Assembly: GCA_001443455.1 (NCBI GenBank)
Contig: LDXO01000001.1
Location: 3,102 to 67,101, forward strand
Direction: 5' to 3'
DNA from: Deltaproteobacteria bacterium CSP1-8
GTDB lineage: Bacteria > Desulfobacterota > Deferrimicrobia > Deferrimicrobiales > Deferrimicrobiaceae
DNA length: 64,000 nucleotides
Shown piece after piece: positions 2,609-54,376 of the stretch. Each line of letters starts with the position of its first letter. Position 1 is the first letter of the stretch. Both the position numbers and the translations under genes were made by a program. Below the pieces are notes generated by a model that was not told where the DNA came from, made no database searches, and saw only the letters and a list, made by a program, of their open reading frames with translations.

Positions 2609-3979
2609 TTACCCCACTTCGTCGAAAGATCGCAGCCGGAAATGGACGCCTTCGATCGACTCCGCCAGGCGTCGCACCGCTTCGTGGTCCAGGCCGGGAA
2701 GGGCCACCGCGGTTGCTGTGACCGAGGGAACGTGCCTGGGCGCTTCCCGGAGGAAGTCGAGGAGGGCCGGGAAGGACGCCTCGCCGTACCGGTTCGGGCA
2801 GATCCGGGCGTACGTCGGGGCGTCGGGGGCGTTGAGGGAAACGGAGAGGGCATCCACCAGCCCGGCGAGCTCCGGCAGGACGTTGCGCCCGTGCACGAGG
2901 TTTGCCAACCCGTCGGTGTTGACCCGGACGAAAGCCCCCTTCGCCTTGAGCAGGGCCGCGATCTCCTTGACCTCCTGCAGCCGGAGGAGGGGCTCCCCGA
3001 ACCCGCAGAAGACGACCTCGTCGTACGCGGTGGGGTCGCCGACCTCCGCGATCACCTGTTCCACGCCGGGTTCCCCGGGAAGCTTCAGGTAATGCCCCTT
3101 CACGTGAAAATCACCCCGCTTCGCGCAGAACGTGCAGATGTTGGTGCACCGGTTGGTGATGTTCAGGTACAGGGAGTTCCGGATCCGGTATGCGACACGG
3201 ACCTCCTCGTCGACGGGAATCCGGAAGATCCGCTTCGCGTTCATCGTGGTGACGCGGGCCACGTCCTCGACGGACAACCCCTTGATCTCGGCAATCCGTT
3301 TCGCCACGAGGGGGACGTACGAGGGTTCGTTCGTCCTTCCCCGGTGCGGTACCGGGGCCAGGAACGGGCTGTCGGTCTCGATGAGCAGCTTCGCAAGCGG
3401 CAGATGGCGGACCGCCTCCGCCTGGGTCTCGGACCCCTTGTAGGTGATTGCCCCGGGGAGGGAGATGAGAAAATTCATCCCGATCGCCCGGCGCGCCATC
3501 GCCAGATCCCCGGAGAAGCAGTGGATGATCCCCCCCACCTCGGAGGCCCTCTCCTCCGAAAGGATGGCGAGCGTCTCCTCGTGGGCGTCCCGGTCGTGGA
3601 CGACGACGGGAAGATTCCGCTTCCGGGCGAGGCGCACCTGCTCCCGGAACGAGGCCCGCTGCGCGTCCCTCGGCGACCGGTCCCGGAAGAAGTCGAGCCC
3701 TGTTTCGCCGACCGCGACCACCTTGTCGCACCGCGAGAGGCGGTCGAGCCGCTCAAGGAGCTCATCCGAGCACCCGGAGGCGTCGTGCGGGTGGAGCCCC
3801 ACGGCCGCATAGACCCCGCCGTGACGGTGGGCGATCTCGATCGCCCTCTCGTCGCTCCCCGGGTGGATCCCGATCGTGACGATGTGGGTGACCCCCGCCT
3901 CGCGGGCGCGGCGGACGACGTCGTCCTCCTCGTCGCAGAGCGGTGGAAGATCCAGGTGGGCGTGTGTGTCGAAAAACAT
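2609..3979 (-). CDS. tatD: TatD-family metal-dependent hydrolase fused to a C-terminal TatD-associated radical SAM domain
   Basis: 456 aa. N-terminus 'MFFDTHAHLD...' with the TatD His/Asp/Glu metal-ligand pattern (~255 aa). C-terminal ~200 aa carries a CX3CX2C motif 'CTNICTFC' plus glycine-rich SAM-binding blocks, resembling the normally separate TatD-linked radical SAM family. Confidence 0.75.
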   Translation of the reverse strand: MFFDTHAHLDLPPLCDEEDDVVRRAREAGVTHIVTIGIHPGSDERAIEIAHRHGGVYAAVGLHPHDASGCSDELLERLDRLSRCDKVVAVGETGLDFFRDRSPRDAQRASFREQVRLARKRNLPVVVHDRDAHEETLAILSEERASEVGGIIHCFSGDLAMARRAIGMNFLISLPGAITYKGSETQAEAVRHLPLAKLLIETDSPFLAPVPHRGRTNEPSYVPLVAKRIAEIKGLSVEDVARVTTMNAKRIFRIPVDEEVRVAYRIRNSLYLNITNRCTNICTFCAKRGDFHVKGHYLKLPGEPGVEQVIAEVGDPTAYDEVVFCGFGEPLLRLQEVKEIAALLKAKGAFVRVNTDGLANLVHGRNVLPELAGLVDALSVSLNAPDAPTYARICPNRYGEASFPALLDFLREAPRHVPSVTATAVALPGLDHEAVRRLAESIEGVHFRLRSFDEVG

Positions 3980-11392: not shown

Positions 11393-11549
11393 GAAGGCTC
11401 GGATTTCCCCCCGGGGAAGGAAATTTCGTCTTGATTCTTGGCCTTTGTTGCGTTATGTATACAGTCGACAAAACTGGTCATGGGTTGCATAAAGGGAACC
11501 GGCATTGAACCCTCCTCCAACCAATCATAGCGAAAGGAAGGGAGCGACC

Positions 11550-13601: not shown

Positions 13602-14854
13602 ACCCGTTGCGATCGTTCCTTTTTACGGTTCTCCTGGCGGCCGCGGGAGCCGGCCTGGCCGCGACGGCGGATGCCGGTCCCACGGTTACGGATTGCCTGG
13701 ACTGCCACGGTGACGCGACGATCGAGAAATCTTTTCCCGACGGGAAGACCCTGTCGCTGTTCGTCGACGAGAAGGAGTTCAGGCAGTCGGTCCACGGAAA
13801 GGGGACGTGCATGTCGTGCCACCCCGACGCGAAGGCCCCTCACGGGAAGCTGGGGGCGGTCACGTGCGGAAAGTGCCACCCCGACGCGGAGAAGTCGTAC
13901 TCCCAGAGCACCCACGGGTTGGTGCACGCGAAGGGAGTCCAGGACGTCCCGGGGTGCGACGACTGCCACGGCAGGCACGATATCCGCAAAGCGCAGGACC
14001 CGAAGGGGCGCACCTTCCGGCTCAACGTCGTCGAGGCCTGCCTTACGTGCCACGAGGACAAGGTGATCGAGGAGAGGTACGGGCTTCCCGACCAGAAGGT
14101 GATGGCGGCCTACCGGGAGAGCGTCCACGGGAGGGCCCAGAAAAAATCCGGCCTCTTGGGCGCCGCGGTCTGCCCGGACTGCCACGGGAACCACATGATC
14201 CTCCCCGGGGACCAGCCGCGTTCCGCCACCCACCGGCAGAACATCCCGACGCTGTGCGGGAAGTGCCACTCCGGCATCCTGGAGGAGTACGAGCGCTCCG
14301 TGCACGGGAAAGGGATGCGCGCGGGGATCGCGGAATCCCCGGTGTGCACCGACTGCCACGGCGAACACTCGATCACGAAGATCACCGACCCCGAGTCGAA
14401 GGTGTACGTGAAGAACATCCCGAGGACCTGCACGGCGTGCCACGGGAACGAGGCGATCGCCACGCGGTACGCCTTGCCGAAGAAGCGGTTCTCCACCTAC
14501 ATGGACTCGTTCCACGGGGTCGCCCTCGAGTACGGCATGACCACGGTGGCGAACTGCGCCTCGTGCCACGGGTTCCACGGGATCCTTCCGTCGTCGGACC
14601 CCGCCTCGTCCGTCAGCAAGGCGAACCTTCCGAAGACGTGCGGGAAGTGCCACCCCAACGCGGGGGCGAACTTCGCCAAGGGGTATGTCCACGTGGAGGT
14701 GACCCCCCAGAAGGCGATGGGCGTGTTCGTCGTCCGTGTCTTCTACACGATCTTCATCGGCACGCTCGTCATCCTGTTCGTCCTCCATATCGGTATGGAC
14801 CTCCTGGGAAGGCGCCGGCGCGGCGAACCGAAAACGGGAGGGACGAAGGAGTAA
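13598..14854 (+). CDS. Periplasmic 11-heme cytochrome c with C-terminal TM anchor (paralog of the c domain of 11550..13601)
   Basis: ATGA overlap with the upstream stop. Signal peptide 'LFTVLLAAAGAGLAATADA'. 11 CxxCH motifs. The C-terminal block 'VANCASCHGFHGILPSSDP...TCGKCHPNAGANFAKGYVHV' is conserved in all three c-type paralogs. TM anchor 'VFYTIFIGTLVILFVLHIG'. Confidence 0.8.
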   Translation: MNPLRSFLFTVLLAAAGAGLAATADAGPTVTDCLDCHGDATIEKSFPDGKTLSLFVDEKEFRQSVHGKGTCMSCHPDAKAPHGKLGAVTCGKCHPDAEKSYSQSTHGLVHAKGVQDVPGCDDCHGRHDIRKAQDPKGRTFRLNVVEACLTCHEDKVIEERYGLPDQKVMAAYRESVHGRAQKKSGLLGAAVCPDCHGNHMILPGDQPRSATHRQNIPTLCGKCHSGILEEYERSVHGKGMRAGIAESPVCTDCHGEHSITKITDPESKVYVKNIPRTCTACHGNEAIATRYALPKKRFSTYMDSFHGVALEYGMTTVANCASCHGFHGILPSSDPASSVSKANLPKTCGKCHPNAGANFAKGYVHVEVTPQKAMGVFVVRVFYTIFIGTLVILFVLHIGMDLLGRRRRGEPKTGGTKE

Positions 14855-14859
14855 CCCCG

Positions 14860-15555
14860 ATGAGCGAAGAATCCCGCAACCCGGTGTACGTGGAGCGCAT
14901 GTCGGTGCTGTTTCGCATGCAGCACATGCTGTTGATCATCTCCCTCCTGGTCCTTGCCGTGACCGGTTTCGCGCTGATGTACCACGAGAACCGGCTGGCG
15001 CAGGCCCTGATCAGCCTGGAAGGCGGGGTGCTGTACCGTGGGATCATCCACCGCGTCGCCGCCGTGTTCCTGATGGCCCAGCTGGTCTACCACGCCTTCT
15101 ACATGCTTTTTTCCCGCGAGGGGAAACGGGAGCTCAACGAGGTCTGGCTCTCGCGGCGGGATTTCGACGACTTTCTCCAGGCGATGCGGTACAACCTGCG
15201 GATGGGCAACGAATACCCGCGGTTCGGGAAATACGGGTACAAGGAGAAGTTCCAGTACTGGGGGGCCACGACCGGCGTCTTCCTCATCTCCGTGACCGGG
15301 GTCATCCTCTGGGCGGAGACCTTCTCGATGAGGTTCCTCCCCAAGTTCGTCCTGGACCTGACCCTGATCATCCACGGGTACCAGGGGCTGCTCATTTTCG
15401 TCGTCCTTCTGTTCTGGCACCTCTACATCGTCCACCTGCACCCGTCCGTATTCCCGATGAACATGGCGTGGCTTACGGGCAAGGTGGACGCCGAGTGGCT
15501 CCGGGAGGAGCACCCGCTCGAATATGAAAAACTCAAAGGAGAAGGGATCCTATGA
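14860..15555 (+). CDS. FdnI/HydC-like dihaem cytochrome b (membrane partner of the 13598..14854 product)
   Basis: 231 aa. 4 TM helices with conserved His ('RMQHML', 'YHAFYML', 'IIHGY', 'WHLYIVH'). C-terminal 'EHPLEYE' motif shared with the other two b units. Starts 6 nt after the upstream stop. Confidence 0.75.
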   Translation: MSEESRNPVYVERMSVLFRMQHMLLIISLLVLAVTGFALMYHENRLAQALISLEGGVLYRGIIHRVAAVFLMAQLVYHAFYMLFSREGKRELNEVWLSRRDFDDFLQAMRYNLRMGNEYPRFGKYGYKEKFQYWGATTGVFLISVTGVILWAETFSMRFLPKFVLDLTLIIHGYQGLLIFVVLLFWHLYIVHLHPSVFPMNMAWLTGKVDAEWLREEHPLEYEKLKGEGIL

Positions 15556-16616
15556 GGGGGAAGTTCCTCGCAGCGATGATCGTCATCGCCCTGGGGGTCG
15601 GAGCCCGGGGATTTTTCTCCCCCGCGGACGCCAGGGTTTCGCTCGAAAAGTGCACCCTCTGCCACGGAAAGCCCGAGTTCCGGAAGATCCTCGTCGACGG
15701 GAAGATCCGGGACCTGTTGGCGACGGGGGAGACCCTGAAGGGATCCGTTCACGAGAAGAAGACGTGCGTGGACTGCCATTTCGACGTGAGCGAGATTCCC
15801 CACCGCCAGCGCCCCAAGCGCGTGGTCTGCACCCACTGCCACTACAAGGGAAACGCCGAAGGGGCCCCGCAGTCGGACGCCTACCTGGAGTATTTCGGGT
15901 CGGTCCACGGCACGGCGATCGCCCGGGGGAACACGAAGGCCCCCTTATGCCAGGATTGCCACGGAAGCCACGCCATCCGCAAGGCGAAGGACCCGGCGTC
16001 GGCGGTGGCCCGCCGGGGCGTCGCAGAGACCTGCGGACGCTGCCACATCGAGATCTACGCCCAGTACAAGACCTCGATCCACGGCGTGGCGCTGTCCAAG
16101 CAGATCACGGAGGCCCCGTCATGCACCGGGTGCCACGGGGAGCACAAGATCTACGGGCACAAGGATCCGAAGTCCACCGTATTCGCGACCCACGTCGCGG
16201 AGCAGTGCTCGACGTGCCACGCCTCGGTCGCGATCATGAGCAAGTTCGGCATCGACTCCGAGCAGGTGACGACGTACCAGAACTCGTTCCACGGCGTGGC
16301 GAGCAAATTCGGCTCCCGGACCGTGGCCAACTGCGCCTCCTGCCACGGGATCCACGACATCCGCCCGCCGGAGGACCCGCTCTCGATGGTCAACCCGAAG
16401 AACGTTCCCGCCACCTGCGGGAAATGCCACCCGGGAGCGAACCCCAACTTCGCCGTGGGGAAGATGCACGTCGACTCCCACAAGAAGGAGTCCGGGGTCA
16501 TCTATTACACCGCTCTGTTCTTCAAATACCTCACGATCGGCACCATGCTCGCCCTCATCGCGCACATCTTCCTCGACATGTACGGGCGGTCAAAACGATT
16601 GCGCGGGGAGCGATAG
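15552..16616 (+). CDS. Periplasmic 9-heme cytochrome c with C-terminal TM anchor (third c-type paralog)
   Basis: ATGA start/stop overlap. Signal peptide 'FLAAMIVIALGVGARG'. 9 CxxCH motifs (CTLCH, CVDCH, CTHCH, CQDCH, CGRCH, CTGCH, CSTCH, CASCH, CGKCH). TM anchor 'LFFKYLTIGTMLALIAHIF'. Confidence 0.8.
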   Translation: MRGKFLAAMIVIALGVGARGFFSPADARVSLEKCTLCHGKPEFRKILVDGKIRDLLATGETLKGSVHEKKTCVDCHFDVSEIPHRQRPKRVVCTHCHYKGNAEGAPQSDAYLEYFGSVHGTAIARGNTKAPLCQDCHGSHAIRKAKDPASAVARRGVAETCGRCHIEIYAQYKTSIHGVALSKQITEAPSCTGCHGEHKIYGHKDPKSTVFATHVAEQCSTCHASVAIMSKFGIDSEQVTTYQNSFHGVASKFGSRTVANCASCHGIHDIRPPEDPLSMVNPKNVPATCGKCHPGANPNFAVGKMHVDSHKKESGVIYYTALFFKYLTIGTMLALIAHIFLDMYGRSKRLRGER

Positions 16617-16670
16617 AAGAGTCGCCGCCGATGCCTCTTGGACGAAAACCGGTAGCGGGGGAGTGAACGA

Positions 16671-17612
16671 ATGTCCGTGGACGAGAAGAAGAATTCGAAG
16701 AGGGAAACCCTGGAACAGGAGATCGAGGCCGCCGTAGCCGAGGGGACCGCCGACCTCGAGCCCTCCGAGGCGGAGAAGATCCGGGAGAAGGTCCGCGCCC
16801 GCGTCCTCGAGGAAGTGGAACGGGAGAGACGCATCCGCACGGCTGCGGAACGCAGGGCGGAGGAGCGCAGACGCCGCGAGGAGAAGCGGCGGGAGAAGCA
16901 CCCCGAGGAAGGGGAGATGTTCCAGCGGTTCAACCGGAACTTCCGTTTTCAGCACATCGTGATGTTCACCTCGGTCATCCTCCTGATCATCACCGGGATG
17001 CCGATCAAGTTCCCCGACTTCGTCCTGTCCCGGTTCCTGGTGAACCTGTGGGGCGGGTTCCACAACTCCACGATCGTGCACCGGATCGGCGCGGGCATGC
17101 TCATCTACTTCATGGTGCACCACCTCTTCTACACGGTGCTCTCCCGGCAGGGGCGGCGCGATTTCGTGCTCCTGATCCCCACCCCCAAGGACGCGAGGGA
17201 CCTGGTGCAGAACATCCGGCATTTCCTGGGGAAGGTCCCGGAGAAACCGAGGTTCGGCCGGTTCAGCTACATCGAGAAATTCGACTACTGGGCCGTCTAC
17301 TGGGGATGCGTCATCATGATCGGCTCGGGGCTCTTCCTCTGGGGGGAATCGATCGCCCTCAAGTATTTCCCCAAGTACATCCTGGACGTCGCCCACGAGA
17401 TGCACAGCGACGAGGCGATGCTGGCCACGCTGGCCATCGTCATCTGGCACTTCTACAACGTCCACTTCAACCCGGACCGGTTCCCCGGGACGCTGATGTG
17501 GTGGCACGGGGAGATCTCGGAGCATGAGATGAAGGAGGAGCACCCGCTCGAATACGAGGAGATGATGGCGAAGCGTTCCAAGCAGGAGGCGGCGGAGGTG
17601 ACCAACCGATGA
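16671..17612 (+). CDS. FdnI/HydC-like dihaem cytochrome b with an ~85-aa Glu/Arg-rich coiled-coil N-terminal extension
   Basis: 313 aa. N-terminus 'EERRRREEKRREKHPEEGE' is a low-complexity ER-rich stretch. It is followed by 4 TM helices with conserved His and a C-terminal 'EHPLEYEEMM' motif. Confidence 0.75.
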   Translation: MSVDEKKNSKRETLEQEIEAAVAEGTADLEPSEAEKIREKVRARVLEEVERERRIRTAAERRAEERRRREEKRREKHPEEGEMFQRFNRNFRFQHIVMFTSVILLIITGMPIKFPDFVLSRFLVNLWGGFHNSTIVHRIGAGMLIYFMVHHLFYTVLSRQGRRDFVLLIPTPKDARDLVQNIRHFLGKVPEKPRFGRFSYIEKFDYWAVYWGCVIMIGSGLFLWGESIALKYFPKYILDVAHEMHSDEAMLATLAIVIWHFYNVHFNPDRFPGTLMWWHGEISEHEMKEEHPLEYEEMMAKRSKQEAAEVTNR

Positions 17613-19642
17613 AAGAGATGTTCCTCTCCTGGTGGGACCTGGTCGTCAAGCATCGGAAGCCGCTCCTGACGGTCGGGGCGGTGGTGCTGGGGATCCTGAT
17701 CGTCATCAACGGGGCCTTCTTCGTTTCCGCCTACTTCCCCAAGTCGTGCGTCGTTTGCCATTACATGGACCCGTACTACGACCAGTGGAAGACGTCCAAG
17801 CACGCAAACGTCTCCTGCATCAAGTGCCATTCCTTCTCCCCGGTGTTCATCACGGTGACGACGCTGAAATACTGGACCGGGCTGTATCACCCGAGGCCGC
17901 ACGCCAATGTTCCCGACCGGCTGTGCCTGTCCTCCGGCTGCCACGAGGGGCGCATCGAGAAGGGGAAGGCCAAGCTGGGCAGCATCACCTTCGACCACCA
18001 GGAACACATGACGAAGCTCAAGCGCGGGGAGAAGCTGCGCTGCACGTCGTGCCACTATTCGATCGTCCAGGGAGAGCACGTCGCGGTCGACACGAACATC
18101 TGCTTCCTGTGCCACTTCAAGGGGATCAGCCAGGGGCAGGCCCTCGGCGGATGCCCGGGGTGCCACGGCACGCCCACCCGGACCGTGGACCACTCCGGCT
18201 TCCGGTTCTCCCACGAGTCCTACCTGAAGATCGGGGTGCAGTGCAAGCAGTGCCACATCCGCGTGGCGGAGGGGGACGGCCGGGTCGACGACTCCCGGTG
18301 CTACGACTGCCACGTGGGCAGGCTGGACAGGAAGACCGACCCGCTCGCCCTCCACAGGATCCACGTCACCATCAACGCGATCAAGTGCCTGAAATGCCAC
18401 GAGAAGATCCGGCACGGCGAGGTCGAGATGGTCAAGACCTTCGAGGTCCAGTGCGACGCCTGCCACAAGCGGCTCCACAACTACCAGAAGGAGATGTACA
18501 TGGGGGCCGGCGCGAGCGGCGTCCCGGACACCCCGTCGAGGATGTTCTCGGCCCAGGTGTCCTGCGACGGGTGCCACACGAAGTCCGTGGAGGTGCGCGA
18601 GTCCGGCGTCTCCTTCCCCGGCGAGAAGAAGCTCACGGCCGAGCGGAACAGCTGCGTCGCCTGCCACGGGAAGAACTACGACCGGATGCTCGACGACTGG
18701 ATCCACGCGTCCCGCATCCTCGCCGCCGACATGGGGGCGATCGTCGCCTCCGGGGAGGCGGCCGTCGGGACCGGCCCCGCGAAATCGAAGAAAGTCGGGG
18801 AGGCCCGCGCGCTGGTGGCGGATGCCCGCTCCAATCTCAACCTCCTGAAAGCCGGGCGCGGAGCCCACAACATCGAGTACGCCTACAAGATCGTGAAGGC
18901 GGGCTACGAACAGGTCTCCGCGGCGTACAAGGCCGCTGGCGTCCCCGGCGGGCCTCCCCGGCCGCCCATCCTCGCGAGCCCGTCCGCCTATTGCATGACC
19001 CTGTGCCACCAGCGGGTCAGGCCTCCGGAGAAGCTCTTCTTCCGGGAGATGGAGGTGAGCTTCCCGCACACGCTCCACGTCAAGGACGTGGGGATCCAGT
19101 GCGCCAAGTGCCACTCCCCGGACAAGCACAAGATGCGGATCGTCACCAAGTCCGAGTGCATGGCGTGCCATCACGAGTCCCGGGACATCGACTGCGGGCA
19201 GTGCCACAAGCCCCACAAGGCGCTCTACGAGGGGAAGGTGAAACCCGCCGGCGTTTCCCCGGTCCCCGACGTGATGGCCGAGGCGGGCCTGAAATGCGTC
19301 GACTGCCACGAGCTGAAAAAGGGGGCGCAGACGGTCCTCACCGTGAAGTCCAAGTGCGAGGAGTGCCACAGCGCCAAGTACGGGAAGATGCTCCTCTCCT
19401 GGAAGGAGGAGATCACCGCGAAGGAGAATGCCATCTCGGTGTCGCTCGAGGAGGCGAGGGAATACCTGGAGCGCAGCAGAAAGATCGGGAAGAACGTCGA
19501 TGAGGACATGAAGCTTTTCCAGGGGGCCGAGACGAACTATCAGATCGTCAGCAACGGGCGGGGGACCCACAATTACGCCTTGAGCCGGGATCTCCTGAAA
19601 TCGGCGCAGAGTTCCCTGGACAGGATCCTGAAGAAGAAGTGA
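17609..19642 (+). CDS. NapC/NirT-like membrane-anchored 18-heme cytochrome c
   Basis: ATGA overlap with the upstream gene. N-terminal TM 'LLTVGAVVLGILIVINGAFFV', then 16 canonical CxxCH motifs plus a variant CX4CH ('CLSSGCH') and CX3CH ('CMTLCH'). The NapC/NirT-type first motifs are 'CVVCH...CIKCH'. Confidence 0.8.
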   Translation: MKEMFLSWWDLVVKHRKPLLTVGAVVLGILIVINGAFFVSAYFPKSCVVCHYMDPYYDQWKTSKHANVSCIKCHSFSPVFITVTTLKYWTGLYHPRPHANVPDRLCLSSGCHEGRIEKGKAKLGSITFDHQEHMTKLKRGEKLRCTSCHYSIVQGEHVAVDTNICFLCHFKGISQGQALGGCPGCHGTPTRTVDHSGFRFSHESYLKIGVQCKQCHIRVAEGDGRVDDSRCYDCHVGRLDRKTDPLALHRIHVTINAIKCLKCHEKIRHGEVEMVKTFEVQCDACHKRLHNYQKEMYMGAGASGVPDTPSRMFSAQVSCDGCHTKSVEVRESGVSFPGEKKLTAERNSCVACHGKNYDRMLDDWIHASRILAADMGAIVASGEAAVGTGPAKSKKVGEARALVADARSNLNLLKAGRGAHNIEYAYKIVKAGYEQVSAAYKAAGVPGGPPRPPILASPSAYCMTLCHQRVRPPEKLFFREMEVSFPHTLHVKDVGIQCAKCHSPDKHKMRIVTKSECMACHHESRDIDCGQCHKPHKALYEGKVKPAGVSPVPDVMAEAGLKCVDCHELKKGAQTVLTVKSKCEECHSAKYGKMLLSWKEEITAKENAISVSLEEAREYLERSRKIGKNVDEDMKLFQGAETNYQIVSNGRGTHNYALSRDLLKSAQSSLDRILKKK

Positions 19643-19652
19643 CCGGGAAACC

Positions 19653-19666
19653 ATAACCCCCGGGGG
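19653..19666. terminator. Perfect 14-bp GC palindrome AACCCCCGGGGGTT between the two convergent cytochrome operons (candidate bidirectional terminator)
   Basis: Sits in the 48-bp gap between the stops at 19642 (+) and 19691 (-). There is no good U-tract, so it could equally be a protein-binding site. Confidence 0.3.
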
Positions 19667-19690
19667 TTGCCGTTCGTCCCGTACGGGGGG

Positions 19691-21289
19691 CTACCGCTTC
19701 CCGCCTTGCCCCGCCTCTCCGTCTTCCGCTTTCCTGCCTCCTTTCCCGGCCCCACTGCCGGAGAACGCCGAAAGAGCCGTTTCGGCGTCCACCCGCGCCT
19801 TTCCGAGCACCTCGGTGGCGTACTCCACGTTGTGAATCCCCTTCCCGTAGAGGATGAAGAGGTAGTTGTACTCGGCGTCCCGTGCCTGCGCAACGGCCTT
19901 CCGGTTCTCCATGCGGGAGGCGTCGGCGGATCGAAGCAGGTCACGGGCCTTCTCCACGACGGGCTTCGTCTTGGCGAGAGCGCTTTTTACCTCCTCCCGC
20001 CAGCTCCCCATCACCCCCTTGTAGTCCTGGCCGTGGCACCCGAGGCAGGCGGCCTCGGAGGCCTGGAACGTCTGGCCGAGGAACGCCACCGTGGATTCCG
20101 CCGTTTTCGGCACGAGGTGACACCCGACGCAGTCCACGTTGGCCACGAACATCGGGCTTGGCCTGTTGGGGACTCCCCGGGCGCCGATCCCCATGTAGAT
20201 CTGCTTCTGGATGTTGTGCTTCTTCTCGTGGCAGACCGTGCAGTCGTATTGCAGGGGCTCGACCGTCGTCTTGACCGCGTGCCGGATCTCCTCGTGGCAG
20301 TGCGTGCACTCGATCTTGTGGTCGGTCACGTGGTTCCTGTGCATGAAGTCGGTGTCGGCGTAGCGAGCGAGCCGGGACGGCTCGTTGTGGCACTGGAGGC
20401 AACGGTCCTTCTTCGCCTCCCCTTCCCCCTGGATCGCCTCGAGATGGCAGTTCTGGCACGCCACGTGGCGCGTTCCCACGAACTCCTTGTGGTTGAAGCT
20501 CGCGTTCCCTACCTTGATGTCCCCTTCCGGGGCGGCGTGGCAGTTTCCGCATCCCCCGATCGGGTTCTCGACGCGCCCGATCTTGGTTCCCTTGAAGTGA
20601 CACAGGAAGCAGGTGCTCTCGGTGACTTCCATGTGGTTCCCCACGACGATCTGGCTGTGACAACTCGTGCACCGGAGCTTCTTCCCTCGCTTGAGGTCCA
20701 CCAGGTGCGGCCGGTGGTCGAACTTGATCCCGCGCTTGAACGTGACCTGTCCCTGGAGGAGCCGGGTTTCGTGGCATCCCATCCGCAGGCAGGAGGCGTC
20801 GTCGATCTCGGCGTACGGCTTGGAGCTGTAGGTGCGGGTAACGTACTTGGCGACCTGCGAGAGCGCCTGGAATTTCAGAATCAGTTTCTCCCGCACCTCC
20901 GGCGGGTAATGACAGTCCACGCACGGCACGTGGTTGTGGCTGGAGGTCTTCCACGCCTGGTAATACGGCTTCATGATGTGGCAGCTGGCGCAAAAGTACG
21001 GGCTGGTCGAGAACTCGAACATCCCCGCGGAGAAGATGAGGAAAAGAACGCCGAGGAATCCGAGGAACTTGAAGAACCGGGGCTTAAGGTGGAGCCTGTC
21101 CTCCTTACCCTCGGGGATGTGCATCCCGAACTTTTCCATGACCCGCTTCTTGCGGGTTTTCTCATGGCTGGCGGGAGCCCCGGACCCTTTCTGCGGTTCG
21201 TCCATGGCCTGTCCCTTCCTTGCCGGGAATCGTTCCTGCAACCAGCATGCAAAGTCGGTATTGTATCCGCGGCACCCCGCGGAGTTCAA
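19691..21289 (-). CDS. NapC/NirT-like membrane-anchored 12-heme cytochrome c (inverted paralog of the N-terminal two-thirds of 17609..19642)
   Basis: Start overlaps the upstream stop as ATGA. TM 'FLGFLGVLFLIFSAGMF'. 11 CxxCH motifs plus the variant 'CLRMGCH'. Clear paralogy, e.g. 'LRCTSCHSQIVVGNHMEVTESTCFLCHFKG' vs 'LRCTSCHYSIVQGEHVAVDTNICFLCHFKG'. Confidence 0.8.
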   Translation of the reverse strand: MNSAGCRGYNTDFACWLQERFPARKGQAMDEPQKGSGAPASHEKTRKKRVMEKFGMHIPEGKEDRLHLKPRFFKFLGFLGVLFLIFSAGMFEFSTSPYFCASCHIMKPYYQAWKTSSHNHVPCVDCHYPPEVREKLILKFQALSQVAKYVTRTYSSKPYAEIDDASCLRMGCHETRLLQGQVTFKRGIKFDHRPHLVDLKRGKKLRCTSCHSQIVVGNHMEVTESTCFLCHFKGTKIGRVENPIGGCGNCHAAPEGDIKVGNASFNHKEFVGTRHVACQNCHLEAIQGEGEAKKDRCLQCHNEPSRLARYADTDFMHRNHVTDHKIECTHCHEEIRHAVKTTVEPLQYDCTVCHEKKHNIQKQIYMGIGARGVPNRPSPMFVANVDCVGCHLVPKTAESTVAFLGQTFQASEAACLGCHGQDYKGVMGSWREEVKSALAKTKPVVEKARDLLRSADASRMENRKAVAQARDAEYNYLFILYGKGIHNVEYATEVLGKARVDAETALSAFSGSGAGKGGRKAEDGEAGQGGKR

Positions 21290-22560
21290 CCTGTATTCAC
21301 GTCTCCCGCGCGGGGGTGTTTCGGGAGGAGGGCGAGCTTGACTCCCAGCAGGGCGGCGATCAGGAGGAGCATCGTCACGGAATACACGGCCACCGATCTG
21401 CGCTGGCGCTGTTCGTCCCGGAAGTTCCCGATCTCCTGCCGGGCCTCCCGGAGGAAGGAGTCGGACTCGTGGATCAGGGGGAGAACGCGGTCGAGGGAGA
21501 AGGTGTGGAACACCGGCTCGACCTCGGTCAGCCTGTTGCGGGCGTTTTCATGGGCCTCCTTCAGCTTGTCCACGTTCCGGCCGGCCGCCGTCGCCGCGTC
21601 GAGTTCCTTCTGGTATTCCGCGACTCCTTCCTCCAGCGCCCCCAGCAGATCACGGACGTTTTCGGCGAACTGGAGCGGCTTGCTCCCCTTTTCGTGGCAG
21701 AATCCGCATTCCCCCGGCCCCGACCCCGAAAAGACCCTGATGGTCGGTCTGCGGTTGGAGTGGTTCCCGTGGCAGGTGATGCACTTCGGCTCCCCGATTT
21801 CCCGGGCCGCGGCGAAGTGGGCGCTTTCCCGGAAGTATCCGGCCACGACGGCGTGGCAGCCTCCGCATACGTTGGCGACCTCCCCGACCCCCGGGGGCGC
21901 GGCGCCGTGCACCCCGTGGCAGGTGGCGCAGTTGGGGGCGAGAGTCGGGTTCTCCCGCCGGATTTTCCCGGCCAGGATCCGGCCGTGGATCCCGTTCTCG
22001 AAGTTCTCCCGCTGGTCCGTGGGGATGCCGTACGGCTTCATGTAGGCCGGGTCCGCGTGGCATGCTCCGCACATCCGGGGGACGTTCGTGCGGTAGACGG
22101 TCGACTCCGGGTCCGACTTCCGGCGGATCTCGTGCCGGCCGTGACAGGAGGTGCATACGGCGACCCGGGTGTCGTCCCTCTCGTACAGGAGCCTGCCGTG
22201 CCGGCTCGTCCGGTACTCGGCGAGCTGGTCGGTCCGCAGGTTGTACTGCCGCATCATGGCGACGTCCGAATGGCAGCGGGCGCAAAACCGGGGGATGTCC
22301 CGGGTCGCCGGTTTCCCGCGGAATCCGTACCGGCGGTCCATCCCCTCCTCGGTGGGCAAGGACGGATTGCCGCCGTGGCACGTCACGCAGGCAACCCCCG
22401 CCTCGCGGTGCACGCTCCCGATGTGCTCCTTGGCCGGCGCGCCGAGCTTCCCCCCGAGCCGGTTGTGGCAGGCGAAGCACTGGTCGACCTTTTCCTGGAC
22501 GGCGGCGGCGGGGGAGGCGAACAGGGTTGCGAAAAGGGCGAGCGCGGCCGCACCGGCCAT
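21286..22560 (-). CDS. Periplasmic 9-heme cytochrome c with C-terminal TM anchor
   Basis: True start 'MAGAAALALFATLFASPAAA' (ATG 22560, signal peptide). The long N-terminal extension in the ORF track was rejected. 9 CxxCH motifs (CFACH, CVTCH, CARCH, CTSCH, CGACH, CATCH, CGGCH, CITCH, CGFCH). C-terminal TM 'VAVYSVTMLLLIAALLGV'. Confidence 0.75.
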   Translation of the reverse strand: MAGAAALALFATLFASPAAAVQEKVDQCFACHNRLGGKLGAPAKEHIGSVHREAGVACVTCHGGNPSLPTEEGMDRRYGFRGKPATRDIPRFCARCHSDVAMMRQYNLRTDQLAEYRTSRHGRLLYERDDTRVAVCTSCHGRHEIRRKSDPESTVYRTNVPRMCGACHADPAYMKPYGIPTDQRENFENGIHGRILAGKIRRENPTLAPNCATCHGVHGAAPPGVGEVANVCGGCHAVVAGYFRESAHFAAAREIGEPKCITCHGNHSNRRPTIRVFSGSGPGECGFCHEKGSKPLQFAENVRDLLGALEEGVAEYQKELDAATAAGRNVDKLKEAHENARNRLTEVEPVFHTFSLDRVLPLIHESDSFLREARQEIGNFRDEQRQRRSVAVYSVTMLLLIAALLGVKLALLPKHPRAGDVNTG

Positions 22561-22595
22561 CCTCGCGGCGGATCCCGCGGGGCTCCCCGCCCGGG

Positions 22596-23030
22596 TCAAG
22601 AGAAGTACCCCCAGATCGTCATGATCAGGAAGAAGAAGACAAAGGCGATCCCGGCCCGGATGGCGGTCGGCCGCCGGTACGGGTGACGCTCGGGGTTCCG
22701 GTCCCAGAACGGCAGGAACCAGATCACCATCGCCCCGAGTCCCTGCGCGAGGATTCCGATGACCTTCGGCGCCCACGGTCCCAGAAACCCCAGTTTCTCG
22801 GACACCTTCAGGAACTGGTACGCGCCGAGGAAGTACCACGCGGGCTTCACGTATTCCGGGGTGTCGAACGGGTCCGCCTTGGGCAGCATCGGCGCCGGCA
22901 CCAGGGAGGAGAGGAGGATGAGGAGGGCGAAGAGCAGCACGAACTGGATCGACTGGCGGATGACGTGATTCGGGAAAAACGGCTCGCTTCCGTACCTGTC
23001 GTATCGTTCGCGCGGTTCCGGCTGCGCCAT
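22596..23030 (-). CDS. Cytochrome b6f subunit IV-like protein (cytochrome b C-terminal domain, split form)
   Basis: 144 aa, 3 TM helices. 'PFFPNHVIRQ' and 'PEWY'-region-like 'PEYVKPAWYFLGAYQFLK' are typical of PetD / cytochrome b C-terminal halves. Confidence 0.7.
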   Translation of the reverse strand: MAQPEPRERYDRYGSEPFFPNHVIRQSIQFVLLFALLILLSSLVPAPMLPKADPFDTPEYVKPAWYFLGAYQFLKVSEKLGFLGPWAPKVIGILAQGLGAMVIWFLPFWDRNPERHPYRRPTAIRAGIAFVFFFLIMTIWGYFS

Positions 23031-23039
23031 TTCTTCCTC

Positions 23040-23798
23040 CTACAGCGGGTCGGCGATTCCCTGCCGCCGGATCATGAGGAAGTGGAGGACCATGAACAGA
23101 AGCATCAGTGCCGGGAGGATCACCACGTGGAAGGCGAAGGTCCGGGTCAGGGCGAGCTGGCCGACCACGTCCCCTCCGCGCACGAGGTATTTCAGCGTGT
23201 CGCCCACGACCGGGATCGCCGACATGCTGTCCGTTCCGACCGTCGTGGCCCAGTAGGAGATCTGGTTCCACGGCAGCAGGTAGCCGCTGAACCCGAAGGC
23301 GAACGTGAACAGGAGCAGCATCATCCCGTTGACCCAGGTGACGTCCCGCGGAGGCCGATAGGCGGCCGTGAAGAAGACCCGCATCATGTGCAGGAGGACC
23401 GTCACGATCATCAGGTTGGCCGCCCAGAAGTGGATCCCGCGGATGAGCCACCCGTAGGGGACCCGGTTCGTGATCTCGACGACGCTGCTGTACGCCTCGG
23501 CCGTCGTGGGGCGGTAATACAATAGAAGGAGGATTCCCGTTCCCAGGAGAAAGAGATAGAGGAGGAACGCGATCCCCCCGAGGCAGGCCAGCAGGTTGCT
23601 CTCGAGCTTCGTCCGGTAGAAGCAGACCGGCTTCTCGAACTGCTTCCGTACCGCCTCGCGGAAAGGGAGCTCCTCGTCGAGCGCCCCGTAGAGGAATCCC
23701 ACCAGGGAAAAGAGGTTGACGATCTCCGTGAAGACGGTGCGCTTCTCGAACTCCTGCCGGGCCCGGTGCCGGGCGTCCCTGTCTCTTTCTTCCGTCAT
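23040..23798 (-). CDS. Cytochrome b6-like protein (cytochrome b N-terminal dihaem domain)
   Basis: Start 'MTEERDRDA' (ATG 23798). Four heme-ligand His in the classic positions ('GIHFWAAN', 'LLHMMRVF', 'FAFHVVIL', 'MVLHFLMIRRQG'). No Rieske gene lies adjacent. Confidence 0.75.
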   Translation of the reverse strand: MTEERDRDARHRARQEFEKRTVFTEIVNLFSLVGFLYGALDEELPFREAVRKQFEKPVCFYRTKLESNLLACLGGIAFLLYLFLLGTGILLLLYYRPTTAEAYSSVVEITNRVPYGWLIRGIHFWAANLMIVTVLLHMMRVFFTAAYRPPRDVTWVNGMMLLLFTFAFGFSGYLLPWNQISYWATTVGTDSMSAIPVVGDTLKYLVRGGDVVGQLALTRTFAFHVVILPALMLLFMVLHFLMIRRQGIADPL

Positions 23799-23820
23799 CT
23801 CCTTCGCTCCGGTGCCCGCC

Positions 23821-24312
23821 CTAGTGCACCGTCTCGCAAATCCCTTGGCATTCGATCGCCGCTGCAGGGGGCCGGTCCCCGGAAGGGTTTCGTCGCGAGA
23901 CAAGGGAGACCCGAGGCGAGGCGGGCAAGCGCAGGAGCGAGTGCGGAGGCGTACGGTCAGTACGCCGCACAAGCGAGCGACGAGCACGCCCGACGCAGCC
24001 CGGGGATCGCTTGTCGCAGCAGAAAAGGCAGCCCTGTTGGCGACCGGCGCCTGCGGCGAGGGAACGCACCGCCAGACCTTTGTCGGACTCCCTGCGCCCG
24101 GCTCGGCGTACCGCCAGTACGCCTGCGCCGTGCTCGGTCGTCCTTCGCGGTCTGACGGCGCATCCGCTTCGCCTCGGCTGCCGACCCTTCCGGGGACAGG
24201 CCCCTCGCTCCCGCTTCGTTGCGCTTCTTCACCATACTCAACGGTATGCCTCAGTCGCGCGCCTTGCTGGCGCGGCGCATCGACGCTCTCGGTGCGTCAA
24301 GCTATTTACGAG
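23821..24312. repeat. ~490-bp MITE-like element bounded by inverted terminal repeats of the T motif
   Basis: Left end 'GTGCACCGTCTCGCAAATCCC', right end 'CTATTTACGAGACGGTGCAC'. Internal inverted repeats 'gcgtacggtcagtacgcc' / 'ggcgtaccgccagtacgcc'. The interior is shared with 3961-4190 (opposite orientation). Confidence 0.65.
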
Positions 24313-33650: not shown

Positions 33651-33852
33651 GAACCGCGTCCCCTTCGTTTCCGCAGGTCTCCGGGGGAAAAAAGACGGAT
33701 ATCCCGGGTTCGGTGGTATCCCCGGGGTATTGTATCCTGTCCGGAAGCGGTAGGGGGGGGCAAGGTCCGGCCGTCATTCGGGGGGGGAGGAATCCCGTCG
33801 GACGGTTTTACGATCCAAAGGGTATTCTTCGACGAACGCCGGAGGTCGTTTC

Positions 33853-34266
33853 ATGGGACGGAAACAGGGTTCGCTTCTCGTCGTGTTTCTGGCCGTGCTT
33901 TTCGCCTGGTCGGCGACAGTGTCGGCAGCCGGGGGAGACGGGGTTCCGAGGTTTTCGAAGGACGAGCTGAAAGGTCTTCTCGGAAACCCGGACGTGGTGG
34001 TCCTGGACGTGCGCTTCGACGGCAACCTCGCACCGAGCCGGATCGCGGGGGCGGTTCACGAGGACCCGGAAAAGGTCGATTCCTGGGCGGGAAAGTACGC
34101 GCGGGAGAAAAGAATCGTCCTGTACTGTTCCTGAGTCAACGAGGCCACGAGCGCCCGGGTGGCGCTGCGTCTCAAGGCTCTCGGGTTCGCGAAGGTCTAC
34201 GCCCTGAAGGGCGGATGGAACGAATGGACCGCCGCCGGATTCCCGACGGAGCGGACGGGGAGATAA
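33853..34266 (+). CDS. Secreted single-domain rhodanese-like protein interrupted by an in-frame TGA (candidate selenocysteine codon, or pseudogene)
   Basis: Signal peptide, then a rhodanese fold ending '...RIVLYCS' at TGA 34132-34134. The same frame continues 'VNEATSARVALRLKALGFAKVYALKGGWNEWTAAGFPTE' to TAA 34264-34266. A hairpin AGCGCC-cgggt-GGCGCT lies ~15 nt after the TGA. Confidence 0.45.
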
Positions 34267-41340: not shown

Positions 41341-42355
41341 GCAGAGGGGTATCCACTTTACTCCAGTACCCACAATATGTAGTGTTACTACCCATGGAGG
41401 ACTATCCGAGGACCCTTGCCGAATTCGAGAAACGGTTTGCCACGGAGGCGGCGTGCCGCGCCTACTTGATCCACTGTCGCTGGCCGTCGGGGTTTCGGTG
41501 CTCGCGGTGCGCCACCGACGATGGATGGGAAACCAGCCGGGGCTTGCGGATGTGTCCCCAGTGCGGACACCAGACCTCCGTGACAGCGGGGACGATTTTC
41601 CACCGGAGTCACCTTCCGTTGCGGACCTGGTTCCGGGCCATGTGGTGGGTCACCAACCAAAAGCACGGGGTCAGCGCTCTGGGATTGCAGCGCCTGCTCG
41701 GGTTGGGGAGCTACGAGACAGCTTGGTCCTGTCTCCAAAAACTGAGGCGTGCGATGGTGCGGCCTGACCGGGACCGGCTGGGCGGCGAGGTGGAGGTGGA
41801 TGAAACATACCTTGGCGGCGTCCAGGCTGGTGGAGGCCGTAGACACTTGGGAAACAAGGCCTTGTTGGCCATCGCCGCGCAGGTCGACGGCCAAGGGATC
41901 GGCCGGATTCGGATGCGTCGGATTCCGGATGCCTCCTCCAAGACACTCCTCTCGTTCGTCAAGATGGCGGTCGAACCGGGGGCCGTGGTCGTCACCGACG
42001 GATGGGGTCCTTACGACGGGTTGCAGAAGGAGGGCTTCACGCACAACCCCCGGGTGATCAGCGGGAGCGGAAAAACGGCATCGACTCTTCTGCCGCGGGT
42101 GCATCGGGTCGCGTCTTTGTTGAAACGGTGGCTGTTGGGAACCCATCAGGGTGCTGTATCCCGCAAGCAACTGGAATATTACCTCGACGAGTTTACGTTT
42201 CGGTTCAACCGCAGGACATCCAGGCATCGCGGTAAGCTGTTCACACGGCTTATTGAACAGGCAGTCGCAATTGGACCTACGCCTTACGAAAAACTGATCG
42301 TCGGTCCGGACCACAATATGTAGGGGTCACTGGAGTAAAGTGGATACCCCTCTGC
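41341..42355. mobile_element. IS1595-family insertion sequence with perfect 27-bp terminal inverted repeats
   Basis: Left IR 'GCAGAGGGGTATCCACTTTACTCCAGT' (41341-41367) is the exact reverse complement of the right IR (42329-42355). Subterminal direct repeats 'CCACAATATGTAG' lie at 41370-41382 and 42311-42323. Single transposase ORF inside. Confidence 0.85.
41394..42323 (+). CDS. IS1595-family (ISXO2-like) transposase
   Basis: N-terminal Zn-ribbon 'CRWPSGFRCSRC...CPQCGH', then a DDE domain. The ORF track starts at GTG 41382; ATG 41394 'MEDYPRTLAEF' is preferred. Confidence 0.8.
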   Translation: MEDYPRTLAEFEKRFATEAACRAYLIHCRWPSGFRCSRCATDDGWETSRGLRMCPQCGHQTSVTAGTIFHRSHLPLRTWFRAMWWVTNQKHGVSALGLQRLLGLGSYETAWSCLQKLRRAMVRPDRDRLGGEVEVDETYLGGVQAGGGRRHLGNKALLAIAAQVDGQGIGRIRMRRIPDASSKTLLSFVKMAVEPGAVVVTDGWGPYDGLQKEGFTHNPRVISGSGKTASTLLPRVHRVASLLKRWLLGTHQGAVSRKQLEYYLDEFTFRFNRRTSRHRGKLFTRLIEQAVAIGPTPYEKLIVGPDHNM

Positions 42356-52246: not shown

Positions 52247-54376
52247 ATGAATAACATAATTGGGATTCGTTATCACAAATTTAGGATCGTGTTGTTCTGT
52301 TTTCTGGCGATCTTTGCTTTCGCAGCATTTACACCAGGCGCTAATGCATCGTCAGGTTTCTTTGCCGATCCCACTAAGGGGGACTGCAGCAGCTGCCACA
52401 CCGGACAGACGGGGAGCAGTTTCTGCGGGATGTGTCATGCGCACGGGGCGCATCCAAACAACCAGAAATCCAGCGTCAACGTGACGGCTGCAACGAACAA
52501 GTCCGACTATGCACCAGGTGAGACCGTCAGCGTGACGATCAGCGGAGGATACCGGCCCAGCCAGGCGCGTGCAATTTTATACAACCAAAGCATGACGCAG
52601 GTTGCCATCAGCACGGGCACGCCCTCCAGCGGCGGGGGACCGGTGAACGCTCCGGCCTGGACCGGCATGACTGTGAACGGGATTGCTACTTACGGGAGGA
52701 CCCTCAGCGCGCCGGCGCCGACCGCGCCGGGAACTTATACATGGAAGGCCGCCTGGTACGGGAACCTGTACGATAAGAGTGGGGCGGCGTTCGGCGGCGC
52801 GAACTGGGTTCCGGACCCCTCCAATGCCGACCACGGCGAAGAGAGAGCAAGCGTTACCTTCACGGTGACGGCCCCTGCTCCGATTCTGACCAGCATCAGC
52901 GTATCCCCCTCGTCGGCCAGCGTTGCGGCAAACGGGACACAGCAGTTCACGGCGACGGCCAAAGATCAATTTGGCAACGCCCTGGTAACGCAACCCGTCT
53001 TCACCTGGACGGTGAGTGGCGGCGGAACGATCAACGGCAGCGGACTTTTCACTGCCGGGAGCACGGCGGGTGGCCCGTACACGGTGAGGGCAGCGAGCGG
53101 CGTGGTGAGCGGAACGGCCAGCGTGACGGTGACGGCCCCTGCTCCGATTCTGACCAGCATCAGCGTATCCCCCTCGTCGGCCAGCGTTGCGGCAAACGGG
53201 ACACAGCAGTTCACGGCGACGGCCAAAGATCAATTTGGCAACGCCCTGGTAACGCAACCCGTCTTCACCTGGACGGTGAGTGGCGGCGGAACGATCAACG
53301 GCAGCGGACTTTTCACTGCCGGGAGCACGGCGGGTGGCCCGTACACGGTGAGGGCAGCGAGCGGCGTGGTGAGCGGAACGGCCAGCGTGACGGTGACGGA
53401 CGTGCCGGGAGACACGACGGACACGGTGCCTCCGACCGTGATCTCCACCAACCCGCCCGATCTCGCGGTGGATGTCTACGTGAATACCGCGATCGAGGCG
53501 ACCTTCAGCGAACAGATCGACCCGTCTTCCCTGGAATCGGGCAACATCCGGGTCAGGGATCCGGCGAATATCGAAGTGCCGGGCGCGGTGAGTTACAGCG
53601 AAACCAGTAAGACAGCGACGTTTTCCCCGTCCACCCCCCTTGCGTACGGTACCGTATACACCGCCGAGGTCAAGCTCGGGGTGACAGACTTGGCCGGAAA
53701 CAGGATGGCGTCCCTTTACAAGTGGACGTTTACGACCCAGCAGGCGTCGCCCGATTCTGACGGCGACGGCGTGGGGGACGACGACGACGAGTCTCCGCAC
53801 GACTGCCGCAACGCGACGCCAAGGACCCCGAGGGGGAACGGCAAGATCCAGGTCGAGCTGGTAGGAAGCGCCCCCGGGTGCCTGAAAAACGTTAAAACCT
53901 CAACGGAGACGAGTTCCTCCATAACCATGGCGGTGAAACCCGCGGGGTACGAGTTCCCCGACGGGCTGGTGTATTACGAGGTGGAGGGGATTCCTCCCGG
54001 GAGCACGGAAACCGTGCTTCTCACCTATCCGCAGCCCCATTCCGCCGGGTCGAAGGTGTTCAAGGTCGACGCCAGCGGGTTCCAGGAGTTTTCCGGGGGG
54101 TCCATCAGCGGGAAAACCGTCACCCTGATTGTCACGGACGGCGGAGCGGGTGACCTGGACGGGCTGCGCGACGGCGTGATCACCGACCCGGTCGGCGTCG
54201 GGTCTCCCGTTGATCCGGGCGGGAGCATCGATCTGGGAACGAGCGCCTCGGGCGGCGGCTGCTCCGTGGTCGGCGCCGGCGGAGGGTGGAAGGAGGCCGC
54301 AGGGTTTTACGGTCTCATTGCCCTTGCGTGGCTCGGGCTGGCCCTCCGGAGGAGGAGACCGAAGACCGGGAAGTGA
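52247..54376 (+). CDS. Large secreted protein: N-terminal diheme cytochrome c region, two identical Big_2-like Ig domains, an SbsA-Ig-like domain, an Asp-rich Ca-binding-like repeat, and a MYXO-CTERM-like sorting tail
   Basis: Signal peptide 'IVLFCFLAIFAFAAF'. Heme motifs 'CSSCH' and 'CGMCH'. 88-aa Ig-like unit repeated twice. 'DSDGDGVGDDDDE' stretch. C-terminus 'GGGCSVVGAGGGW...GLIALAWLGLALRRRRPKTGK' has a GC motif, a TM helix and an Arg cluster. Lower GC than its surroundings. Confidence 0.65.
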   Translation: MNNIIGIRYHKFRIVLFCFLAIFAFAAFTPGANASSGFFADPTKGDCSSCHTGQTGSSFCGMCHAHGAHPNNQKSSVNVTAATNKSDYAPGETVSVTISGGYRPSQARAILYNQSMTQVAISTGTPSSGGGPVNAPAWTGMTVNGIATYGRTLSAPAPTAPGTYTWKAAWYGNLYDKSGAAFGGANWVPDPSNADHGEERASVTFTVTAPAPILTSISVSPSSASVAANGTQQFTATAKDQFGNALVTQPVFTWTVSGGGTINGSGLFTAGSTAGGPYTVRAASGVVSGTASVTVTAPAPILTSISVSPSSASVAANGTQQFTATAKDQFGNALVTQPVFTWTVSGGGTINGSGLFTAGSTAGGPYTVRAASGVVSGTASVTVTDVPGDTTDTVPPTVISTNPPDLAVDVYVNTAIEATFSEQIDPSSLESGNIRVRDPANIEVPGAVSYSETSKTATFSPSTPLAYGTVYTAEVKLGVTDLAGNRMASLYKWTFTTQQASPDSDGDGVGDDDDESPHDCRNATPRTPRGNGKIQVELVGSAPGCLKNVKTSTETSSSITMAVKPAGYEFPDGLVYYEVEGIPPGSTETVLLTYPQPHSAGSKVFKVDASGFQEFSGGSISGKTVTLIVTDGGAGDLDGLRDGVITDPVGVGSPVDPGGSIDLGTSASGGGCSVVGAGGGWKEAAGFYGLIALAWLGLALRRRRPKTGK
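52871..53398 (+). repeat. Perfect intragenic tandem duplication, 2 x 264 bp (Ig-like domain unit)
   Basis: 52871-53134 and 53135-53398 look identical at nucleotide level. Both encode 'APAPILTSISVSPSSASVAANGTQQF...GTASVTVT'. The antisense ORFs 52735..52962(-) and 52966..53226(-) share the identical prefix 'MAVAVNCCVPFAATLADEGDTLMLVRIGAGAVTV'. Confidence 0.85.

Follow-up and report, generated by a model that had tools for sequence, protein, structure and literature searches.

A predicted selenocysteine-containing rhodanese with a C-x-U motif, encoded by a TGA-interrupted gene of Deltaproteobacteria bacterium CSP1-8

The window analyzed here is a stretch of 64,000 nucleotides (64 kb) of Deltaproteobacteria bacterium CSP1-8 (contig LDXO01000001.1, positions 3,102 to 67,101), and all coordinates below refer to it unless a homologous locus is named. 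On its forward strand lies a small rhodanese gene that is interrupted by an in-frame TGA and that we describe as a candidate selenoprotein gene (Table 1). The open reading frame (ORF) that starts with the ATG at 33853 runs for 93 codons (33853-34134), ends in ...RIVLYCS, and stops at TGA 34132-34134, past which the same frame is open for 43 further codons (VNEATSARVALRLKALGFAKVYALKGGWNEWTAAGFPTERTGR, starting with VNEATSARVALRLKALGFAKVYALKGGWNEW) up to a TAA at 34264-34266. The initial annotation, which was made from the sequence alone, had reported this 93-residue frame, the 43-codon continuation, and the TAA, and all of its coordinates were exact. Because the match of the read-through product to the rhodanese profile PF00581 (aa 36-128 against profile positions 2-102 of 102; E value, 1.4e-16) covers nearly the whole profile, the rhodanese domain spans the TGA.

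Table 1. Features of the candidate selenoprotein gene, in window coordinates
Feature	Position	Strand	Basis
Shine-Dalgarno-like GGAGG, 7 nt upstream of the ATG	33841..33845	+	Read from sequence
Complete gene of the predicted selenoprotein, 137 codons including the selenocysteine (Sec) codon, plus TAA	33853..34266	+	Translation, NF041203, PF00581
Predicted Sec-type signal peptide (MGRKQGSLLVVFLAVLFAWSATVSA / AGG)	33853..33927	+	Cleavage after VSA inferred
Rhodanese domain, aa 36-128, spanning the TGA	33958..34236	+	Pfam PF00581, solved homologues
Cys92 (TGT), conserved, two residues before Sec	34126..34128	+	Cys in 163/170 loci, TGA in 7
UGA, predicted Sec94, canonical catalytic position	34132..34134	+	Conservation, 6mxv alignment, GG spacing
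Predicted bacterial selenocysteine insertion sequence (SECIS) hairpin, 6-bp stem and 5-nt loop	34150..34166	+	RNAalifold covariation, bacterial SECIS criteria
True terminator TAA	34264..34266	+	Sequence, translation

The read-through protein was compared with the NCBIfam models and scored 142.1 bits against NF041203.1 ("rhodanese_LYCAU") when Cys was placed at the Sec position and 135.2 bits when X was placed there, over positions 4-125 of 126, while the second-best model reached only 39 bits. NF041203, whose description reads "rhodanese-related (seleno)protein," is an equivalog model with its cut-off at 115 bits, and because the read-through protein passes that cut-off (142 versus 115 bits), the window gene is, by profile score, a member of this family. 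It shares with the family the motif L-Y-C-[A/S]-U (L-Y-C-S-TGA in the window), a signal peptide, a length close to 135 aa, and a SECIS that falls on the same codons (S-A-R-V-A). The only difference from the model is Ser for Ala between Cys and Sec (LYCSU versus LYCAU), and LYCSU is typical of a Deferrimicrobiaceae-like clade.

The finding is one that is already known: the family was described in 2005 and its U-x-U variant in 2007. PMC13188914 and PMC9312934 list the family with the motif CxU and credit it to Zhang and Gladyshev 2005, and the latter, a 2022 review, places "COG0607 form 2 (CxU)" among predicted selenoproteins whose functions are not clear. The U-x-U variant was reported from Olavius symbionts by Zhang and Gladyshev 2007 (PMC1976440); it belongs to the same family and has the same hairpin, whereas the window gene keeps a Cys at -2. 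Other rhodanese selenoproteins, namely, form 1 (UxxS), forms 2 and 4 (UxxG), and TsoB (UxxxxU) (PMC13188914), likewise carry Sec near the active site of a rhodanese domain, but their motifs and NCBIfam/Pfam assignments differ from those of the window protein, which scores only 27 bits against the TsoB model (NF045694; cut-off, 805). The remark in the initial annotation that rhodanese-related sulfurtransferases are among the reported selenoprotein families is therefore correct, and the gene passes the model of one such family. In the literature searched we found no characterization of the family, and in the reviews it has the status of a predicted family only.

About 30 clusters at 59-95% identity came up in a protein search, and almost every one had been called at exactly 93 aa, ending in ...LYCS. 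The corresponding DNA was collected by exact look-up and by scanning collections of metagenomes and genomes for patterns, which yielded 170 homologous loci spanning 45-100% identity and several phyla. The key codons read Cys-x-TGA in 162 of the 170 loci, TGA-x-TGA in 7 (L009, L074, L084, L103, L166, L167, and L169), and Cys-x-Cys in 1, so that TGA stands at the Sec codon in 169/170. Carriers include Deferrimicrobiaceae, many Thermodesulfobacteriota, Methylomirabilota, Nitrospirota, and Geobacteraceae, and among cultured strains Desulfacinum infernum DSM 9756, D. hydrothermale DSM 13146, and Desulforhabdus sp. TSK. The closest named relatives (61-67% identity) are metagenome-assembled genomes of Candidatus Deferrimicrobiaceae, phylum Deferrimicrobiota; as such genomes are often labelled "Deltaproteobacteria," the earlier guess of a deltaproteobacterial source was a reasonable one.

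Only two relatives with Cys in place of Sec were found, L162 (C-S-C; L162:10196-10267) and P0035/L172 (C-A-C; L172:207-665), and both of these sense-codon relatives carry a second Cys at the Sec column, which makes a Sec/Cys pair (n = 2). Three full-length database homologues appeared to have Trp at the TGA column. These were rejected as Trp-containing forms: the W arises from translation of short contigs with genetic code 4. For P0024 and P0029, both from short JGI contigs (L170:377-790 and L171:505-897), the DNA reads TGA, and the Trp of P0030 is probably the same code-4 artifact.

The position of the TGA within the rhodanese fold was determined with a family profile built with X at the Sec column, so that the alignment was unbiased toward Cys. 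The best solved match to this profile, 6mxv (E value, 5.5e-23), aligned without gaps and placed C-GGGFR-S onto U-VNEAT-S; the active-site loop of the window protein has six residues, U-V-N-E-A-T (34132-34149), with Sec94 first. In 6mxv, 6ku1, and YnjE the invariant GG follows the catalytic Cys at a distance of 26 residues, and relative to the GG motif the window protein has its TGA at -26 and Cys92 at -28. Given the ungapped 6mxv alignment and the 26-residue spacing, the predicted Sec94 is at the canonical nucleophile position and Cys92 is an added residue at -2. The same two observations led us to reject the opposite assignment, in which Cys92 would be the catalytic Cys and Sec would stand at +2. 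HMMER did align Cys92 with the catalytic Cys, but weakly (8 bits) and only by means of a compensating 2-residue gap, and these alignments are artifacts. The alignment with Cys-containing rhodaneses that had been proposed as a check thus puts the TGA on the catalytic Cys of solved rhodaneses, where L162 and P0035 carry Cys. A canonical Cys rhodanese of the GlpE/PspE/Sud type has Cys at the head of the loop; in the window protein that position is held by TGA/Sec, and the protein is predicted to act as a rhodanese does, as the Sec variant.

The frame past the TGA is, on comparative grounds, translated and under purifying selection. The 72 nt around the TGA align free of indels in 150 sequences, and the 40 codons downstream of it are open in 156 of 157 unique sequences. 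Within the window's clade, the downstream codons show 4.2, 4.7, and 9.6 differences per pair at codon positions 1, 2, and 3, respectively, and synonymous and nonsynonymous differences stand at 923:480 (140,117:55,004 overall). Purifying selection is stronger on the 40 codons downstream of the TGA than on the 40 codons upstream. The one broken downstream frame among the 157 unique sequences is that of D. hydrothermale DSM 13146 (NZ_FWXF01000005.1; L143:10283-10410), where an extra in-frame TAA lies 19 codons past the Sec TGA in a stretch that reads GMGF*KVYALKGGW; this copy is probably a pseudogene or an assembly error.

The hairpin that had been noted downstream of the TGA, AGCGCC-cgggt-GGCGCT, is present and starts exactly 15 nt after it, its stem formed by 34150-34155 with 34161-34166 and its loop, CGGGU, occupying 34156-34160. 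Family-wide, the conserved core consists of the inner 5 bp (34151-34155 with 34161-34165). RNAalifold, applied to 150 nonidentical sequences, recovered one helix only, columns 26-30 with 36-40, which correspond to this core, and compensatory double changes were found in all five core pairs. Pair 27-39 is U-A in 105 sequences, C-G in 40, and U.G in 5, and is broken in none; it falls on synonymous third positions of Ser (AGY) and Ala (GCR) codons, and therefore coding constraint cannot account for its covariation. Where the encoded amino acids differ, a stem is nevertheless rebuilt, as GUCUC/GAGAC in L152, as CUCCGC/GCGGAG in L128, and with A-U replacing C-G in L072 and L138. Altogether 99.7% of cells are paired, a value that drops to 20-64% in controls with the 3' arm shifted by 1-3 columns, and none of 500 shuffles matched the observed value on any of five measures.

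The bacterial SECIS (bSECIS) criteria of Zhang and Gladyshev 2005, as quoted in PMC13188914, are four: an apical loop of 3-9 nt on an upper stem of 4-16 bp; a G at loop position 1 or 2, as a rule with G or U after it; a UGA-loop distance of 16-37 nt; and a minimum free energy of -7.5 kcal/mol or lower. The window hairpin has a 5-nt loop on a 6-bp stem; the loop reads C-G-G-G-U, with a near-invariant G at loop position 2 (149/150 sequences); the distance from the UGA to the loop is 21 nt (34135-34155) and is invariant across the gapless alignment; and the predicted energy is -9.2 kcal/mol for the 17-nt hairpin and -23.1 kcal/mol for the 51 nt after the UGA, with a family median of -8.2 kcal/mol. 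The hairpin thus lies within all four published limits in addition to covarying, and so do those of 130/150 relatives; for the other 20 it is chiefly the -7.5 kcal/mol limit that is missed, with folding confined to the 17-nt core.

Like the SECIS elements of Escherichia coli fdhF and fdnG and the bSECIS consensus, the hairpin is a stem-loop within the coding sequence just 3' of the UGA, and it shares with the consensus the small apical loop, the G followed by G/U in the first positions, and the spacing of 16-37 nt. It differs from them in that its conserved core is short (5-6 bp), and neither a conserved lower stem nor a bulged U was detected. The upstream UGA of the U-x-U forms is separated from the loop by 27 nt, still inside the range of 16-37 nt, and one hairpin could in principle serve both UGAs, which are 6 nt apart. 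By every test applied the hairpin qualifies as a SECIS element, and SelB is predicted to bind it, with read-through predicted to depend on it.

We consider it very probable (roughly 0.93) that 33853-34266 encodes the 137-residue precursor of an exported, single-domain rhodanese whose catalytic residue is selenocysteine, encoded by the UGA at 34132-34134. The candidate selenoprotein put forward in the initial annotation is supported by the conserved TGA, the purifying selection, the covarying SECIS, the catalytic position, and the NF041203 score.

Several results weigh against this interpretation. Folded as a single sequence, the 75-nt region is no more stable than its dinucleotide shuffles (z = 0.07), and the significance of the hairpin comes from comparative analysis only, as a hairpin in a lone sequence proves nothing by itself. 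Rfam gave no match at the gathering threshold. The two Cys forms are equivocal on whether the hairpin is lost with the Sec codon: L162 has a hairpin with a G.G mismatch (-4.4 kcal/mol), and P0035/L172 keeps 2/5 of the homologous pairs but can form a 6-bp hairpin in a different register (-6.6 kcal/mol), and with n = 2 we did not use them as evidence. A Pfam search of 40 ORFs found no selA, selB, or selD in the window; the window has no tRNA and hence no tRNA-Sec (selC); and ARAGORN detected no tRNA-Sec in 172 sequences (1.68 Mb) comprising the window and the homologous loci. Strict and relaxed filters found no second TGA-interrupted coding frame in the window, the other candidates having been rejected as adjacent genes or antisense frames, and a nearby C_GCAxxG_C_C gene is a plain Cys form. 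The Sec competence of the organism is thus predicted from the comparative argument, as is the presence of selenium in the protein. No operon partner is conserved, the best neighbour cluster occurring in 22 of about 160 loci, and since in the reviews, too, the family is a predicted one of unclear function, what is said here of its substrate and of the part played by Cys92 is conjecture.

The failure to find Sec machinery in the sequence covered, with selenium predicted only, leaves room for the rival that survives best, SECIS-independent programmed read-through or regulated truncation, in which the hairpin would slow the ribosome and a near-cognate tRNA (Trp, Cys, or Arg) would read the UGA; in one variant, the cell would make a mixture of the 93-aa fragment and a full-length, non-seleno protein. 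We regard its prospects as remote. The site is not a tolerant one: it is the position of the catalytic nucleophile and holds Cys in sense-codon relatives, the classic Sec/Cys signature. The hairpin has the bSECIS geometry of the SelB type, including the loop G, and truncation at 93 aa would deprive the product of its active-site loop along with two conserved elements of the domain. Moreover, the family occurs in lineages documented as selenoprotein-rich (PMC1976440).

A very recent pseudogene was the fallback reading of the initial annotation. It would require a nonsense mutation (for example, TGG or TGT to TGA) in a normal rhodanese whose downstream frame has not yet decayed, and two observations seem at first to agree with it, namely, that gene callers end the product at 93 aa and that three database homologues seemingly have Trp, whose codon TGG is one step from TGA. 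That Trp is TGA translated with code 4, as described above. A pseudogene is excluded because the downstream frame is open in 156/157 sequences, changes are biased to third positions, and constraint is tighter downstream than upstream; neither relaxed selection nor frame decay was detected past the TGA. With the gapless 72-nt alignment and a TGA retained down to 45% identity, this reading is refuted and is left with only a very slight probability, and copies of one recent allele are excluded by the 45-100% identity range and the spread over several phyla.

An error of sequencing or assembly that altered one base in a Cys or Trp codon has in its favor only that a single change would suffice to make TGA. 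In the assembly collection, 35 blocks index the identical 93-aa product, and of the contigs that encode it, 21 were read. An error is excluded because the four contigs examined (L001-L004, from independent ENA and JGI samples) and more than 160 diverged relatives have the same TGA codon, and its probability is negligible. Equally negligible is an alternative code in which TGA would be a sense codon (Trp or Gly) and the site an ordinary residue: some pipelines did use code 4 for relatives, but the genetic code of the window is standard because TGA ends 17/46 of its coding-like ORFs, with well-formed Pfam domains before it, and TGA is also the true terminator of 64/170 family genes, so that one TGA is read through while the other terminates (e.g., L007). 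The G+C content of the sequence, 65%, is also unlike that of known lineages in which TGA has been reassigned.

For the selenoprotein favored here, what is established of Sec insertion in bacteria suggests how the UGA would be decoded. The hairpin (34150-34166) would recruit SelB-GTP-Sec-tRNA(Sec) when the ribosome is at the UGA, 21 nt upstream of the loop; Sec would be inserted at UGA 34132, and translation would go on to TAA 34264. The N terminus has a positively charged n-region, a hydrophobic core (mean Kyte-Doolittle value, 3.36), and a small-x-small c-region, and a signal-peptide core is present in 144 of 145 unique presequences of the family, of which 11 have a twin-arginine-like motif and 5 have a lipobox-like motif. 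These features point to export by the Sec translocon, and the signal peptide would direct the precursor there to give a mature periplasmic protein of about 112 aa.

The chemistry can likewise be sketched from that of rhodaneses. The selenolate of Sec94 would be the nucleophile that accepts sulfane sulfur (or selenium) from a donor, e.g., thiosulfate or polysulfide, and Cys92, on the same face of the preceding strand, would most likely resolve the Sec94 adduct as a selenenylsulfide, in which case Cys92 and Sec94 would be a redox-active C-x-U pair instead of a plain carrier. For function, the best working analogy is a periplasmic protein of Wolinella succinogenes, the polysulfide-sulfur transferase Sud (PDB 1qxn), which likewise consists of one rhodanese domain, is about as large, and matches the family profile with an E value of 1e-6. 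Sud is exported to the periplasm, as the window family is predicted to be. The small single-domain rhodanese GlpE (1gmx) is also of similar size (E value, 2e-6). Both Sud and GlpE use Cys as the nucleophile where the window protein would use Sec, and the likeness is distant (about 31-32 bits).

A further reading, which we judge unlikely, is that the C-x-U rhodanese is a catalytic or substrate-handling module of periplasmic multihaem sulfur/selenium reductases and not a sulfur carrier. If so, the free-standing form would hand Se-S-bound sulfane to, or pass electrons to or from, multihaem cytochromes, and a parallel would be MccSep, reportedly a recently described Cys/Sec multihaem polysulfide reductase.

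This reading draws on multihaem cytochromes found at two places. One U-A-U rhodanese (Y-U-A-U-P, with two TGAs), at L009:151-1531 (ENA ERZ27283508 k119_71682), is fused in frame to a multihaem cytochrome c with eight CxxCH motifs. The cytochrome part is HAO/HDH-like, its best NCBIfam match being hydrazine dehydrogenase at 95 bits (cut-off, 900); the contig ends inside the gene, and this is the only such fusion among the 170 loci. No paper describing a rhodanese-octahaem fusion came up, although no search was aimed at it. In the window itself, at 11505-23987 and about 10-20 kb from the rhodanese gene, genes for large cytochromes c of the multihaem type (698, 354, 677, and 532 aa), in which MtrC/MtrF-like and NapC/NirT-like domains occur, are clustered with cytochrome b561-like and split cytochrome b/b6 genes; the cluster may be a module for electron transfer in the periplasm or outside the cell.

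When the neighbourhoods of about 160 loci were clustered, the genes next to the rhodanese gene in the window, those for a PF0610-like helix-turn-helix regulator, SRAP, ComA, and PrpD, proved to be clade specific, and the O-methyltransferase neighbours likewise. Three further observations concern other parts of the window. One ORF of 456 aa, at 2612-3979 (-), encodes both a complete TatD-related DNase domain (aa 3-253) and, after it, a radical SAM domain (aa 272-441). An IS1595-family transposase (DDE_Tnp_IS1595 and zinc ribbon) lies at 41382-42323 (+) between the genes for a 2-oxoacid dehydrogenase E2 and an NDH-2-type oxidoreductase, and contig L003 has a shorter ORF with the same transposase domain at the same place. 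At 52735-53475 (-), inside the ORF at 52247-54376 (+), an identical 41-residue antisense peptide window occurs twice, about 245 nt apart, which points to a near-perfect tandem duplication inside the gene for the Big_5 (bacterial Ig-like) domain protein.

The scientific weight of the finding is small, since the family, its CxU motif, its SECIS, and its UxU variant have been known since 2005-2007 and a curated NCBI model exists. Its practical value lies in annotation. Almost all public protein records of the family (clusters P0001-P0032) are either cut at the Sec codon (93 aa), which drops the active-site loop, or, on short contigs, read with code 4, so that a false Trp appears where the catalytic residue belongs, and rhodanese alignments or selenoproteome counts built on such records would mislead. 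The family concerned is predicted to be exported and is widespread in anaerobic sediment and groundwater bacteria.

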